Source: Escherichia phage Mt1B1_P10
Length of the DNA: 45,359 nt
Reading direction: 5' to 3' (one strand)
Sequence record: MT496971.1
The notes below the pieces were generated by a model. The model saw only the letters and a list, made by a program, of their open reading frames with translations, had not been told where the DNA came from and did no database searches. Below, in pieces: positions 39,355 through 45,359 of the stretch. A program made the position numbers and the translations under genes. The first letter of the stretch is position 1. Every line of letters begins with the position of its first letter.

Positions 39355-41982
39355 TTATGCGAAGCAATAGTCAGATACTAAGATTTCGTTAAGGTCAAAC
39401 TCTCCTTGCTCTGGCACTTGGATTCCGGTGTCTACTAACCAGCGCTCTTCATGCTCATCTAACAGGCTTTGCAGAGCGTTACGGCCTTGATACATCTTCA
39501 CCATTTCTGCCCTTAGACTATCACGTAGGTCTGCGGTGCGGCCTGCATGAGTACCGAAAGAGTCATGGATAACTGCAATGGAGGTAATACCTTTATCCAC
39601 TAGGTCGCACACCGTTAGAATCAGGTGGCTAGCATCATGGCCGTGCACGAAGTTAGGAGCAGCAGCGCCCATCATAGCCGTTTCATCCACTACGTCCGTT
39701 TCAATCTGTAGACTCATCTTGATTTCTCCCATCAGGCAAGTGGATACGCGGAGCATATCAGTAGCCATAATCTTTTGTTGCAGAATGAAGCCTGTGGGCA
39801 AGGTATACTCTAAGCCTTCATTTCTTTTAGCTGCGAAACGGGCAAGTTGACGAATCATTTTCATTGCCACTATAGGAGCTTTAACCACTTCCGAAATAGA
39901 AGGCCAGATTAAAGCTGTCATATAGTTATAAGCTGCGCTAGGTGTCAGGCTGTCTTTGCGGTCATTATCAAAAGGATGTACAGGATTGGCGGTACGCCCT
40001 TCCGCAATAGCCCGTTGGGCCTCTTTTTCTTCCAAATCAACGATATAATCAATCACTGACTCACGGCAGGTTAGACGTGTGCTGCCGTAAGGTAGTGTCA
40101 TTACGGGCTTTTTGGTCAGGCCGCGAGTGATTCCTATCATATCCCACGCACTAGCCATGCTACGCAGTTCCGCACCTGTTAAAGTCACGCTGCCAGAAGT
40201 GAAGGTTTCCGCATCCTCTGCATTCATGTATGCATAATTCTTCTGAATTACTACCTGCGCAACGGCACCATAAATATCTTGAGGGGAGTCAGAGGGCTTA
40301 AGGTTTACCGCTTTCGCACCTACTGCATCGCGTAGCATAGCACTGTAGTGCTGGATACCAGAACAACTACCATCTTGATGGACGGGGAGGTGCGTCATGA
40401 ATTGGTCTTGCGTGCCTTCATCCAGTGCATCCAGATAACGCGCATATTCAAAGCACCAAGCAAGGAAGCCGTAAGGGGAGTCGGCATTTACCCATTGAGT
40501 GAAAGTAAGCGGATCCGCTGCAATGTCGCGGCACATGTCTTGAAATTCACTATCCAGCACGTTAGCGGTGCGCACGTCAAAAGTCTTCTTATCCCAACCC
40601 CAGTTATTAGCCCCGTTCACCAAAAACCATTTAAGCGCCTCAGCGCTATCAAGGCGCTGCCCTTCGGTAAAACGGAGCAATGCCTTGCCTAAGTCGTTTG
40701 ATTGCGGAGAGAGCGTGCTAGATTGCGCGTAGACGCGGCTGCGGCTGTCCAGTGCATACACGAAGTAGATGGCGTCAAACTGGCTGTATTTACGTGCCTG
40801 CCCGACCATGCGGACGGTCGCCGCCGATTTGCTGCCGCGCTTAGTTTCAGCGGTATACAGCTTGGTACATTCGCCTTTCCAGTTGATGAAGGCTTGCCAT
40901 TGTTCCGGCGTTAGCATCTCTTTAAGTTCACGGCCTCGCAGGTGCTGGAACTCTAACGGCACTGGATTAGCTGGCTTGTTCTCACGGTCGATGAGCGGTT
41001 TAAAGGAAGGCACACCATAGCCGAGGTCTAGACGTATAACGTCCTCCACAACCTGTAAAACCTCTTTATTAACCTGCCACTTAGTTGCCTGCAAAGCGTT
41101 AACAGCCTTATAAACGGCTGGCATTTGCTTTTTGGTCAGCTTGCGGACGTGCTCACGATTGCCTTTTACCAGACGAATACGGCTTGCTACTTTCTCAGTA
41201 TGAAACCCACCGTTAAAAGGTGATACCCAAGGGCGGGGAGGTATAACGCAAGGTGCATAGGCAGGGCTGAGCTGCGCTACATGTTCCTTAAATGCAGTTA
41301 TCCACTCTCCAACATGTTCACTGGTCTGTAAATAGTAAACACCATGCTTTCCGCCGTTAGTGCGCAAGGTACGAAGGAAGACAGGTTGACCATTGAAGAA
41401 TACACTATTCTCCAATATTTCGAGCAAGGTCATACCGATTTGCAGCAAGGTGTCTTTAGGCCATGCCTCCCAACGGGAGAAATCCGCGTCACGGTCAGCA
41501 ACAGATTTCTCAGCTACTACCGCTACGTTGTGCGCATGACGATAAGATTTAGTCTTGCTAGCCTTAAGTGACTTCTTCACTTTCTCAAAGTACTTAGCTG
41601 CGTGACCTTCCAGCTTGCTAAAACGTACTTGGTCTTCGATGCGGTCCGCTACATTCATAGCGATTGCTTGTAAGGTAACGTCTGTATTCAGCATATCCAT
41701 AACGATTTTCATGGTGATATATGCTGCCACTTCGTTTCCTACGCAGTTAATGAAAGCTAATGCACGTGGTGCACGACCTCTCTTGCCTTCGTATTCTTCC
41801 TTGTAAGCCTGAATACCTTCCGCCATAGGTGCGATTAGTTCGGACAATAAGCGGCGATTCCATGCCGTGTCTGATTCATTACCGGATGCAATCTGGCGTT
41901 GTTGGTCCGCTTCAAAGCGACGGATGCCGCCGTTAAACATTTCTTCTTCAAGTTGAAGTTGAATAGCGTGTAGGTCTTGCAT
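39355..41982 (-). CDS. Single-subunit DNA-directed RNA polymerase (SP6-type), 875 aa
   Basis: N-terminus [32 protein letters not shown] matches SP6 RNAP as recalled; catalytic motifs [16 protein letters not shown] and [11 protein letters not shown]; ATG with SD AGGAG. Confidence 0.95.
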
Positions 41983-42045: not shown

Positions 42046-42930
42046 TTACTTAGTCAACTCTTCTACTGCCTCAGAGATTAAGGGCCATGCTTCATGGCCT
42101 TCACCGTAGCCTAGCTTAACCAGTTCGCGGCGTGCCTTGTTAACTGCTGTTTTCTTCGTTGCCTCCTCGGCGCTTAAACCTAAGCGAGCATAGAAGCAGG
42201 AAGATTTGAATTGCGGCAGCATAGGCGCGGCTGCCTTCTTGCTTTCGCGTGCGCTACTTAAGGAGGCGATGCGGTCATTAGCTGCCTGTAATTGCTCAGT
42301 CAGTGCCTTAATTTGTGCCAGCAGACCGGCAATAGCGGCATTCTCAGTATTAGCCGTGTTATCCAGCGGCGCTGACTTCGGTGCTTCCGGCTTGCTTTCC
42401 TCTTCCCACGGTGCTGATTCGTCGGCCTCCTGCTCGCTCGCGGGTGGCACTACCTGCGGCGCTTGCATTTCCTGTGATTCTGCGGCCCCCGTCGCGTTCT
42501 CCTGTGGTTTTACTGTCTCAGCCTTAGATTGTACCGTCTCAGCCTTTGTCTCTTTCTTAGGATCAATCAGGGCGTTTACGGCGTTAGTGTCCAGCTTGCC
42601 CTCTGCGGCGAGTTCTGCGGCCTTCTCCATGATTATATTTTCATCAGCGAAAGGAACAAGCGCCAGCATTACCCTCATAGCCACACCTTTAAAGCGTTCG
42701 TCTCCTTCAAAGACACGGGCTACACTCATCAGCTTGTAGCATTGTGCCTTCTTGATGCCGAACTCTGATTCTACATAAGCTAAAAAGTCTTTTTGACCTT
42801 CGAAATCACCGCGTAATTCATTCAGACAAGCGCCAACTTTGATGTAAGAAGTGCCGATATTGTCTAAGTGCTGCTTGATTTCAGCGGTTGCAGCTTCACG
42901 AACAGACAGGAGGACGTTTTCAGTAGTCAT
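42046..42930 (-). CDS. Hypothetical early protein with acidic/Pro-rich low-complexity linker, 294 aa
   Basis: Start moved to ATG at 42930 (SD AAGGTGA); track start is GTG; no recognisable catalytic motifs. Confidence 0.6.
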   Translation of the reverse strand: MTTENVLLSVREAATAEIKQHLDNIGTSYIKVGACLNELRGDFEGQKDFLAYVESEFGIKKAQCYKLMSVARVFEGDERFKGVAMRVMLALVPFADENIIMEKAAELAAEGKLDTNAVNALIDPKKETKAETVQSKAETVKPQENATGAAESQEMQAPQVVPPASEQEADESAPWEEESKPEAPKSAPLDNTANTENAAIAGLLAQIKALTEQLQAANDRIASLSSARESKKAAAPMLPQFKSSCFYARLGLSAEEATKKTAVNKARRELVKLGYGEGHEAWPLISEAVEELTK

Positions 42931-42993
42931 AGTAATCACCTTATATAGTGTAAGTAAATATCACATAGCCCACGTAGATAGGCTATAGGATAA

Positions 42994-43179
42994 TTACTCT
43001 CTCCAAAGGTGTTTTAATGCCTTATTGCAGTACTCATAAGTATGACTCTTACTGCATAAGGTGTATTTCTCAGCCCACTTTTGCTGAGCTTGTTCTATCT
43101 TGTAAGCGTCATAGCCAGCCTTTGCAGCAAAAGCAAGGACAAGTGAAGACAACAACAGGCATCCAATCAAGGTTTTCAT
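42994..43179 (-). CDS. Small early protein with predicted signal peptide, 61 aa
   Basis: ATG with SD AGGAG; MKTLIGCLLLSSLVLAFAAKAG hydrophobic N-terminus then a Cys-containing soluble part. Confidence 0.5.
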   Translation of the reverse strand: MKTLIGCLLLSSLVLAFAAKAGYDAYKIEQAQQKWAEKYTLCSKSHTYEYCNKALKHLWRE

Positions 43180-43247
43180 AATCTCAACTCCTAATAAATG
43201 AAAGTTTAATCAGGCGCTACCGTAGTAACGCCTTGTTAAGCCTTCTC

Positions 43248-43265
43248 TTATAGTGTCAGCTAAAT
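43248..43265 (-). promoter_or_regulatory. Phage RNAP promoter, outlier variant
   Basis: Minus-strand ATTTAGCTGACACTATAAGAGAAGG: closer to the canonical SP6 promoter (ATTTAGGTGACACTATAG) than the other copies, with A at +1. Confidence 0.5.
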
Positions 43266-43370
43266 AGTTTGTATGTAGTACCTAGCACTTCCTCACGAAT
43301 CTGCGCAAATCGTAAGGAACATTTCAGGGTTACACCGTCTGAGAAGATGAAGTTATATTGCCTTTCCATC

Positions 43371-43703
43371 TTATTTTTCCTCTTCTTCGTCTTCATACCA
43401 AACTACATCGCTGTCATTTGGTACATCATTATAAAGAGCTTCATAGATGCGAGCTTGAAGAATCATGGTTACATCCTTCGTATCAGGAATCAAACCAGCG
43501 TCTTCAAACTCAACATCAATACCATCCGCAGCCATCACAGTAAAGATTTCGCTGTAATAAACTGGAACATGACTATCTACAACCTCATGCAGTGCATCAG
43601 AGTAATCATCATCTTCACGAATCTCATCGTACTTGATGCGCTCGTTGAATGCTTCAACAGTTGCAGCCAGAAGGTTGTAGTAAGCGTTAGCGTTGCGTTC
43701 CAT
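43371..43703 (-). CDS. ocr: Ocr-like DNA-mimic anti-restriction protein (T7 gp0.3 homolog), 110 aa
   Basis: ERIKYDEIREDDD...VPVYYSEIFTVMAADGIDVEFEDAGLIPDTKDVTMILQARIYEAL parallels T7 Ocr as recalled; highly acidic, ends in EEEEK; ATG with SD GAGGA. Confidence 0.85.
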   Translation of the reverse strand: MERNANAYYNLLAATVEAFNERIKYDEIREDDDYSDALHEVVDSHVPVYYSEIFTVMAADGIDVEFEDAGLIPDTKDVTMILQARIYEALYNDVPNDSDVVWYEDEEEEK

Positions 43704-43852
43704 GATTTAATCCTCATTAGTTAGTTAGGTTACATTATAGGGCACTCAAAAGAATACCCTAGGTTTAACCTATCCAGACTAAGAAGCGACTACCCATATT
43801 GTTAAAGAGCGTGGCTTGTGCCTTGATAGGCTGGCTAGTGCCAGCAACTATC

Positions 43853-44017
43853 TTATAAGATACTATTCACAAGTTTATCTATTTTAGCATTAATTGCAAC
43901 TACTTTACTATAAAGTTTATCGTGCTTGCTCTTGTCTGTGTTAGCTTGCCAAGCGGCATAAGCAACAGCAAGTTTCTCTTGCAATGCATCATAGCGTTTA
44001 CGTTGTGCGTTAGTCAT
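43853..44017 (-). CDS. Hypothetical small early protein, 54 aa (below track cutoff)
   Basis: ATG at 44017 with SD AAAGGTGA; MTNAQRKRYDALQEKLAVAYAAWQANTDKSKHDKLYSKVVAINAKIDKLVNSIL. Confidence 0.4.
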   Translation of the reverse strand: MTNAQRKRYDALQEKLAVAYAAWQANTDKSKHDKLYSKVVAINAKIDKLVNSIL

Positions 44018-44143
44018 GATAGTTCACCTTTGTTAGTAAGCCTATCAAGGCACTAGCCAGATTGTTAAAGAGCGGGATGTTTAAAGACGTCGCCGTCTTG
44101 ATGCTTAATGTAACCTTGTATGCCGTGGTTGTCAATAGTTAAT

Positions 44144-44368
44144 TTAGAGATTTGTCGTGATTACTTCATCGTAATCGTAATCTTCACTGCCTAGATACTC
44201 AGTAATGACTTGGTTGTCATACTCAGATACTAAGGTAACTCGGTGATATTCAGTGTCGTAATCTATCAAATAGTGATACACATCAACGCCTACACCAGCT
44301 TGCATCATATCATCACGGAAGCGAATAGCTTCGCTAGCTGATTCAAAGAATACCTCATGTTGATACAT
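44144..44368 (-). CDS. Hypothetical acidic early protein, 74 aa
   Basis: ATG with SD GAGGGAGGG overlapping the upstream stop; D/E/Y-rich (...EYLGSEDYDYDEVITTNL). Confidence 0.55.
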   Translation of the reverse strand: MYQHEVFFESASEAIRFRDDMMQAGVGVDVYHYLIDYDTEYHRVTLVSEYDNQVITEYLGSEDYDYDEVITTNL

Positions 44369-44547
44369 TATTTACCCTCCCTCAACTCATCTATCATGTT
44401 ACGGTATTGATTAACTGTATCGGTCCAACCTTCGTTAAGAAAGCGGTGATACAAGGCTAACTCATCATCTGTAAGTAATTCATTGTTACGAATCATGTAG
44501 CACAACAGAGTGAAGAGAACGGACAGTTCACGGTTATTTAATGTCAT
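44368..44547 (-). CDS. Hypothetical early protein, first gene of the genome (start uncertain), about 59 aa
   Basis: ATG at 44547 has SD GAGGT; the upstream ATG at 44589 (73 aa) lacks an SD. Confidence 0.45.
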   Translation of the reverse strand: MTLNNRELSVLFTLLCYMIRNNELLTDDELALYHRFLNEGWTDTVNQYRNMIDELREGK

Positions 44548-45092
44548 AGTTAATACCTCATTCAATAAGTAGTTAACCACGGCATACATAGGTTACACTA
44601 AGCAAATTGTTAAAGAGCAATGTAAGCGCTAGTCTCTTCGTATGCCTTACTAGCTGGCTACTAGGTGCCTCAGCACCGCCTACGTGATGCATAGTATTAC
44701 ACTAAGATTATCTTGTCAACACTAAGTTACCATCACTAAGAATAAGATAGGTTGTCTAACGTGTTAGACTAAGGAAAAGCAATAGATACAGAGATAGGAT
44801 AGGCTAGGTTGGCTAGGTTTCTGGTGTTCCTCCTACTGCATCTTATTACTATTACCTACTCTTAGCGGTCTACCGACCGCGACCTAATTGCATCTTATAG
44901 CTTTAGCTATGCAATCACTAAGAGAAGACACTAAGACTTACTAAGGTACACTACTAAGTTGATACTAAGCTAAGCACTAAGGCTTTAACTAAGGTAGCCC
45001 ACTAAGTCTAACCTAAGCCATCCATCAGGATTATACCAAGGATACACAAGCGCGGTGAGTGTAGCGTAACGCAGTGGAGCGAAACGAACAGA

Positions 45093-45359
45093 TAGCCCAC
45101 CCACGCCCACCCTGTCAAACGCTCAGGAATGGCCCTAAAACGGCCTGTGTAAGCCCTAAGCGGTTGCACTAAGGCAATCACCTTGTCCAATACTAAGGCG
45201 TGCCCTAGCGCTTCCTAGGCGTTCTCCTTGTGCAGCCACTAAGAGCAGACCTCGGCAAACCCTAGGCCACCCGTCGAAGACGTACCAGCCCAGCCCAATT
45301 CCCAAGCCAACCGCAGCGCGGCCCCCATATGGGGAAAATCCGGCGAGGGCGAGGGCGAG
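45093..45359. repeat. Direct terminal repeat, copy at window end (genome left end)
   Basis: Identical to bases 1-267. Confidence 0.9.

Follow-up and report, generated by a model that had tools for sequence, protein, structure and literature searches.

Sites identical to the rRNA-operon boxA, coupled to long-range RNA helices, in the early region of Escherichia phage Mt1B1_P10 and related phages

In Escherichia coli, the leader of the ribosomal RNA (rRNA) operons, or rrn operons, contains a boxA, an RNA site bound by NusB-NusE, which nucleates a complex of Nus factors and SuhB on RNA polymerase (PMC4807359; PMC10250234). The leader-trailer helices of these operons carry RNase III sites (PMC10250234), and it has been proposed that the boxA-bound Nus factors and SuhB loop the RNA to the polymerase, aiding long-range folding and rRNA maturation (PMC4807359; PMC10250234). 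Here, we analysed the early region of Escherichia phage Mt1B1_P10 (MT496971.1; the whole stretch of 45,359 nucleotides (nt) is called the window), in which a 13-mer identical to the rrn boxA occurs three times, two copies being followed directly by an arm of a long-range RNA helix that brackets early genes. The 13-mers are probably NusB/NusE loading sites for an rrn-type complex on early transcripts of the host RNA polymerase, and the adjacent helices are predicted RNase III processing stems. BoxA, the rrn leader-trailer helices and the RNase III processing of T7 early RNA are already known. A full-text search retrieved no literature on boxA-coupled long-range helices around phage genes and none linking boxA to T7-, SP6- or K1-like phages, of which the SP6/K1-5 genome papers may still hold a mention.

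In reverse orientation, the 2.4 kb at the right end of the window match the left ends of K1E, K1-5, mutPK1A2 and many further genomes of Vectrevirus (SP6-like Autographiviridae) at 90-96% identity. The window is thus the reverse complement of a K1E/K1-5-like Vectrevirus, and its early genes therefore lie on the minus strand. The original prediction had taken this region to be early and transcribed by the host RNA polymerase, which agrees with its place as the leftmost region of an SP6/K1E-like podophage and with the predicted sigma70-like promoters on the minus strand.

On the plus strand, ATTGTTAAAGAGC is found exactly three times, at 43798-43810, 44061-44073 and 44606-44618, always within the early region. 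No fourth copy exists in the window even when two mismatches are allowed, and no exact copy appeared in 100 dinucleotide-preserving shuffles. The three copies first reported are therefore exact, with end coordinates that had been given 1 nt too long. All of them read GCTCTTTAACAAT on the minus (transcribed) strand, which is also the strand of every early open reading frame (ORF). The boxA of the E. coli rrn leader has exactly this sequence, which fits both the rrn form GCUCUUUAACAA and the gamma-proteobacterial consensus GYTCTTTAANA derived by Baniulyte 2017 (PMC5725501). The rrn leader sequence is present in 5426 of 5426 complete genomes of E. coli, with a median of 7 occurrences in each, and it lies about 140 nt upstream of the 16S rRNA gene in the one record examined; since this leader contains TGCTCTTTAACAATTT, the 13-mer is an exact rrn boxA. 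The copies are numbered here against the direction of transcription:

44606 to 44618, minus strand: boxA copy 3, exact, with an unpaired probability of 0.71; upstream of gene 1.
44061 to 44073, minus strand: boxA copy 2, exact; upstream of a gene of 54 amino acids (aa).
43798 to 43810, minus strand: boxA copy 1, exact; upstream of ocr, at the same position as the T7 boxA before gene 0.3.

Each copy thus precedes an early gene on the minus strand, as had been claimed, and its end is separated from the ATG by 58 nt (copy 3), 43 nt (copy 2) or 94 nt (copy 1, ocr). Copy 3 and its next two bases form a 15-nt identity to the E. coli rrn leader (GCTCTTTAACAATTT), and the region of copy 2, CGCTCTTTAACAATCTGG, is identical to T7 nt 811-828 at 18 of 18 positions. 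According to a thermodynamic prediction on the 1001-nt early RNA, which was also used for the helices below, the copies are mostly single-stranded (mean unpaired probability 0.71-0.74). A scan of 42900-45359 against Rfam at E <= 1 returned only three chance-level matches, to miRNA and snoRNA families.

The conservation of the motif was assessed in the window and 25 related early regions from at least six genera, collected by similarity to the early region of the window. They included Vectrevirus, Zindervirus, Acadevirus, Tuodvirus, Ulipvirus, Przondovirus K30, T7, Phimunavirus CB5, Gajwadongvirus ECBP5 and PP99, Cronobacter phage Peggy and others. Matches to the boxA consensus in these 26 early regions numbered 60 on the sense strand and 0 on the antisense strand, with 1-4 per phage, and their number varied from 2 to 4 even between close relatives. 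The motif is fixed across relatives while the 8 bases upstream of it are variable. An alignment of related early regions had been suggested as a check of the original prediction, and it shows both the motif and the helices described below to be conserved. At the position of copy 1, the K1E record has GCTCTTTTAACAAT, with an additional T, and SP6 has GATCTTTAACAAT; either the sites are degenerate or the sequences contain errors. A pattern scan of IMG/VR for boxA followed by TGATAGG gave 9 loci, mostly from the same phage groups or unrelated single matches.

Shared blocks (CCTTGATAGG / CTGGCTAGTGCC) had been described next to the motif as occurring in rearranged order. These blocks are real but not merely rearranged: they are inverted repeats, and they form the arms of a long-range helix (helix A). 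A second inverted pair, 44575-44604 / 44102-44130, which had gone unmentioned, forms another (helix B). The four arms, in the direction of transcription, are:

44575 to 44604, minus strand: 5' strand of helix B, 30 nt with one bulged A at 44589; starts 2 nt after boxA copy 3.
44102 to 44130, minus strand: 3' strand of helix B, 29 nt; starts 14 nt past the gene 2 stop and ends 28 nt before boxA copy 2.
44040 to 44058, minus strand: 5' strand of helix A, 19 nt, GGCUAGUGCCUUGAUAGGC; starts 3 nt after boxA copy 2.
43813 to 43831, minus strand: 3' strand of helix A, GCCUAUCAAGGCACAAGCC; ends 2 nt before boxA copy 1.

Helix A comprises 19 bp (RNAduplex -42.9 kcal/mol, z = -5.7 against shuffles) with a pairing probability of 0.82, and helix B comprises 29 bp and one bulge (-48.1 kcal/mol, z = -10.2) with a pairing probability of 0.92; both are present in the minimum free energy and centroid folds of the early RNA, and the boxA copies lie outside both. 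The same arms were recovered by a repeat search, as I1 (43812-43837 / 44034-44059, 88% complementary) and I5 (43831-43842 / 44049-44060, 100%) for helix A and as I3 and I4 (44102-44130 / 44575-44604) for helix B. All arms are outside ORFs: the 5' arms precede the Shine-Dalgarno sequences of gene 1 and the 54-aa gene, and the 3' arms lie past a stop codon.

The coupling between boxA and helix was examined in all phages of the set by pairing the 42 nt downstream of each boxA against the next 1000 nt, shuffle-based z scores being computed for the window. In almost every phage, the best partner formed a near-perfect duplex of -40 to -54 kcal/mol, with a gap of 2-4 nt between boxA and the 5' arm and a 3' arm ending 1-3 nt (helix A type) or 11-29 nt (helix B type) short of the next boxA. 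Conversely, when 40 long-range 5' arms were located independently of boxA, from conserved cores and their downstream complement, 37 of the 40 had a boxA (at most one mismatch) immediately upstream.

The arms vary between phages in a compensated manner. For this analysis, each 5' arm was joined to its 3' arm by an artificial N8 linker, giving alignments of 17 distinct modules for helix A and 16 for helix B. Standard pairs filled 94.3% of the cells in helix A, against 31-41% when the partners were slid by 1-3 columns, and 95.5% in helix B, against 27-38%; 6 pairs of helix A and 11 of helix B were changed on both sides. Compensated variants include phD2B (GUGUCGUGAUAGGC / GCCUAUCACGACAC, 5' arm / 3' arm), ECBP5 (AAUCUACCUGAUAGGC / GCCUAUCAGGUAGAUU) and SP6, with GUAAGCC / GGCUUAC where the window has GUAUGCC / GGCAUAC. 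Wobble pairs were asymmetric, with 49 G·U against 9 A·C, which is expected only if the helices form in the sense RNA.

Within helix A, the inner 8 bp (44040-44047 / 43824-43831; UGAUAGGC / GCCUAUCA) are invariant in 17 of 17 modules from many genera. Such invariance exceeds the needs of pairing, and this core could be a recognition element for a protein or for RNase III. Its GAUAGG also occurs in the hairpin that precedes ocr, at 43766-43775 (GGAUAGGUUA). A small local hairpin adjoins the 3' arm of the same helix:

43830 to 43845, minus strand: local hairpin GCUGGC-ACUA-GCCAGC, judged by eye; directly 5' of the 3' strand of helix A, with an overlap of 2 nt.

By eye, this hairpin is kept in relatives through G·U pairs or flipped stems (GCUGGC/GCCGGC in K30, GCCAGC/GCUGGC in PST_H2 and K1E), and it could provide a stable 3' end after processing. 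Another hairpin, AAGACG-GCGA-CGUCUU at 44084-44099 (minus strand), lies between the helix arm and the next boxA and is not significant alone. Both small hairpins may be analogues of boxB or stabilisers of 3' ends.

The genes and the predicted promoters among which these elements lie are as follows:

44719 to 44691, minus strand: P1, predicted sigma70-like promoter, TTGACA-17-TACTAT, 10/12 in a consensus scan; 73 nt before boxA copy 3.
44368 to 44547 (ATG at 44547), minus strand: gene 1, ORF of 59 aa, PHROG 9275, unknown function; gp1 in K1E and K1-5.
44144 to 44368, minus strand: gene 2, ORF of 74 aa, PHROG 6403, unknown function; gp2 in K1E and K1-5.
44135 to 44107, minus strand: P2, predicted sigma70-like promoter from the consensus scan, TTGACA-17-TACATT; 34 nt before boxA copy 2.
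43853 to 44017 (ATG at 44017), minus strand: early gene of 54 aa, K1E gp2.8 family, PHROG 16783; annotated 2.8 in K1E and K30.
43371 to 43703 (ATG at 43703), minus strand: ocr, DNA-mimic anti-restriction gene (Pfam PF08684, 9.6e-32; PHROG 2568).
39355 to 41982, minus strand: phage RNA polymerase gene, downstream of ocr and further small genes.

Helix B thus brackets genes 1 and 2 (44144-44547), helix A brackets the 54-aa gene, and ocr is the first gene past boxA copy 1. P2 overlaps the 3' arm of helix B, and its homologous site was annotated as a host promoter by the authors of the Pm5460 genome. All class-B relatives retain its TTGACA and a -10-like hexamer even though the helix covaries, so this segment may have a dual function, as promoter and as RNA helix arm.

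The original prediction offered RNase III sites, host promoters or operators as roles for the motif. Sigma70-like promoters and probable RNase III stems do stand in the same intergenic regions, and a bias of 60 to 0 between strands would also be expected of a promoter element. The 13-mer itself is nevertheless most improbable in any of these roles. It is predicted to be single-stranded (unpaired probability about 0.7) and lies outside both helices, which argues against an RNase III site; this part of the earlier idea applies to the shared blocks instead, whose covarying long-range helices of 19-30 bp fit RNase III. As a host promoter the motif fails, its upstream 8 nt being unconserved; the scan called no sigma70 hexamers (16-18 bp spacing) at the 13-mer, no -35 is suitably spaced, and two of the copies are themselves downstream of predicted promoters. 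Finally, the motif is identical to a known protein-binding site that acts at the RNA level.

This identity extends to the arrangement of the rrn leader, on which the rrn antitermination complex (NusA/B/E/G, SuhB and S4) acts and against which the same script was run as a positive control. In the E. coli rrn operon, boxA was found in the leader and in the 16S-23S spacer, and the 5' arm of the 16S leader-trailer helix was placed 2 nt after boxA, its 3' arm being just past 16S. With 23S, the unrestricted duplex search gave a spurious partner inside 23S, and restriction to the trailer recovered the known helix, in which about 80 nt separate the spacer boxA from the start of the main paired part; the phages therefore share the layout of the 16S leader and not that of 23S. 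The phage modules share with the 16S leader the order boxA, 5' arm, cargo, 3' arm, next boxA. They also share an identical boxA (GCUCUUUAACAAU; 15 nt at copy 3) downstream of sigma70-type promoters, which are predicted in the phage, and a second boxA after the enclosed unit, as in the 16S-23S spacer. The phage helices (19-30 bp) are within the range of the rrn helices, for which 27-44 bp is quoted (PMC10250234). They differ in enclosing small protein-coding units (165-400 nt) where the rrn helices enclose rRNA, in lacking boxC (UGUGUGGG), and in forming up to 4 tandem modules per phage, with one phage 3' arm that doubles as a promoter.

Consensus boxA sites are also known outside rRNA operons, shortly downstream of a promoter as here, in the 5' untranslated region of suhB (PMC5725501) and in CRISPR array leaders (PMC7665894). 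Unlike the phage sites, these are single and have no coupled long-range helices; the CRISPR site protects untranslated RNA from Rho, whereas the suhB site is repressive, its boxA lying within about 50 nt of the start codon and the bound Nus factors occluding the Shine-Dalgarno sequence (Baniulyte 2017, PMC5725501). It is unlikely that the phage boxA, in the manner of suhB, mainly represses the next gene at the level of translation or through Rho. The distances of 43 and 58 nt at copies 2 and 3 would suit such a role, but copy 1 is 94 nt from the ocr ATG, and repression is hard to rationalise for genes that a lytic phage needs within minutes. It would also leave unexplained why 37 of 40 helix arms come right after a boxA and why the layout is that of the 16S leader.

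No long-range partner exists for the arm downstream of boxA copy 1 (z = -0.9); this arm forms a local structure instead:

43701 to 43798, minus strand: long irregular local hairpin from boxA copy 1 to the ocr start codon; -37 kcal/mol, z = -5.9.

The conserved core of this hairpin spans 43726-43772, with the upper stem UAGGGUAUU...GUGCCCUA and a lower stem, AGGUUA/UAACCU, found conserved by RNAalifold. Compensatory variants of the upper stem in relatives (UAGGAGA/UCUCCUA, UAGGAGG/CCUCCUA and CUAGCUUCUC/GAGAGGCUAG) were judged by eye only, because MAFFT misaligned this variable part and RNAalifold recovered the lower stem alone.

By its position, the ocr leader hairpin is the counterpart of the T7 R0.3 region. 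In T7, an exact GCTCTTTAACAA is present at nt 813-824, between promoter A3 and gene 0.3 (ocr), and the order of boxA, hairpin with a GGGUAU...GUGCCC top and ocr is the same as at copy 1. The T7 hairpin after boxA is the R0.3 RNase III site, reportedly cleaved near nt 890 (Dunn and Studier 1983). Reviews of the T7 group reportedly mention the T7 boxA; the T7 GenBank records annotate promoters, and neither boxA nor RNase III sites. The two phages differ in that T7 has a single boxA and local hairpin sites, whereas two of the three boxAs in the window are coupled to gene-bracketing long-range helices.

The single copy in T7 also bears on the idea that the boxAs are decoys, abundant early RNA titrating NusB, NusE and SuhB away from the rrn operons and so aiding host shut-off. 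For overexpressed nut RNA, titration of Nus factors with lowered rRNA expression has been reported (cited in PMC4807359), the phages carry 1-4 perfect rrn-type sites each, and RNase III cleavage would free boxA fragments. We nonetheless regard a decoy function as quite unlikely, since a boxA fixed immediately 5' of the helix arms would be left unexplained and T7 has a single copy.

Lambdoid nut sites resemble the loading sites proposed here in that a phage boxA on early host-polymerase transcripts recruits NusB/NusE, as established for lambdoid phages (PMC4807359, PMC10250234) and as we infer for Mt1B1_P10. They differ in what follows boxA, which is a 15-nt boxB hairpin in nut sites and a long-range arm or an R0.3-like hairpin in the window, and in boxA itself, which is the full rrn consensus in the window. 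The boxA of lambda is the shorter CGCUCUUA. A lambdoid nut site, with boxA, a boxB within about 10 nt and an N protein, was considered and rejected: no significant boxB hairpin was detected, and a comparison of the early proteins with Pfam matched ocr alone and no N family.

A side observation concerns K30, a T7-like Przondovirus of another subfamily, whose positions 667-957 are 93.5% identical to 44074-43785 of the window. The shared block consists of boxA, helix arm, gp2.8, helix arm and boxA, and the homology is bounded by boxAs at both ends. This suggests that early gene cassettes have been exchanged between subfamilies, with boxA at their borders. One could then view the 13-mer and its flanks mainly as recombination linkers for early gene cassettes, their resemblance to boxA being secondary; the K30 block with its boundaries at boxAs and a cassette number that varies, with 2 to 4 boxAs, would speak for this. 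Such linkers would have no need, however, of identity to the host rrn boxA or of sense-only placement (60 to 0), nor would they yield G·U-biased compensatory changes in the arms, and we hold this explanation to be very unlikely. We rather regard the exchange of cassettes as following from functional boundaries that the phages share. Repression as in suhB, Nus titration and a linker role are possible as side roles, none of which explains the fixed geometry of boxA and helix.

Two further features were noted in the window. At 43244-43260 (minus strand), between the small gene after ocr and the next gene, GCTGACACTATAAGAGA resembles a promoter of the SP6-type phage RNA polymerase; it is followed by a GC-rich hairpin, GGCGTTACTACGGTAGCGCC, and this 17-mer has no second copy at up to 3 mismatches. 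ACTAAG, read on the plus strand, occurs 59 times in the window against 31 +/- 6 expected and is clustered at both genome ends, with 6 copies in 76-478 and 15 in 44701-45243, 8 of the latter being at 44917-45006 with a spacing of 10-13 nt. These clusters are presumably the short-repeat arrays that stand beside the terminal repeats of T7-type genomes.

The reading of the 13-mers as NusB/NusE loading sites beside RNase III stems has to be weighed against several points that tell against it. The regions upstream of boxA copies 3 and 2 hold boxB-like hairpins that fold no better than shuffles (z = 0.24 and -0.41). The promoter scan called more promoter-like sites in shuffles (6.6) than in the real sequence (3). 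For each helix, 0 of 500 shuffles reached the observed percentage paired or covariation score, a significance inflated by the many close relatives in the alignments; the slid-partner control is free of this weakness. Because the relatives were found through similarity to this region, the set does not give the frequency of boxA across Autographiviridae. Lastly, the early ORFs are translated, so that the need for protection from Rho is not obvious.

If Nus factors do bind these sites, early transcription could proceed as follows. The host RNA polymerase would start at P1 and P2, and the nascent RNA would expose GCUCUUUAACAAU about 35-70 nt later. NusB-NusE(S10) would bind boxA and, with NusA, NusG and SuhB, would make the polymerase fast and Rho-resistant, as on rRNA operons. 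As boxA is proposed to stay tethered to the polymerase, the 5' arm would stay close to the RNA exit while the polymerase moves on by 220-470 nt to produce the 3' arm, just beyond the enclosed stop codon. The resulting duplex of 19-30 bp would be a substrate of RNase III, whose cleavage would yield gene-sized mRNAs and would free boxA, and the factors would load again at the next boxA. Copy 1, the third boxA, would then be followed by the local T7 R0.3-like hairpin before ocr. Host transcription draws T7-type genomes into the cell. A fast, Rho-resistant polymerase would thus secure genome entry. Of these steps, factor binding, antitermination or an increase in speed, tethering and RNase III cleavage are the inferred ones; the sequences themselves show the identity to the rrn boxA, its strand and position, its tight coupling to covarying helices and the geometry of the 16S leader.

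Taken further, the SP6/K1E-like phages and several other enterobacterial Autographiviridae may have copied the whole processing logic of rRNA operons for their protein-coding early genes. In this tentative and rather less probable extension, the boxA-tethered Nus complex would act as a co-transcriptional RNA chaperone that creates RNase III sites for excising every early gene cassette, while keeping the polymerase fast and Rho-resistant during genome entry. If true, this would be the first case in which mRNAs undergo rrn-type chaperoning, and the looping model of boxA could be tested in a compact natural system. For rRNA, it is still debated whether Nus complexes tethered to boxA promote long-range helices.

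A strictly lytic phage group thus carries up to 4 perfect rrn-type boxAs, placed as in the 16S leader, with helices around protein-coding genes. If functional, these modules would name host factors needed in the first minutes of infection and would account for the cutting of the early polycistronic RNA into units. They would also offer a small mutable system, with loops of 200-500 nt, for testing the part of boxA-tethered Nus complexes in the formation of long-range helices. For enterobacterial Autographiviridae, they would provide a practical rule by which to annotate early regions, and they would give a reason why early genes are exchanged like cassettes between subfamilies.

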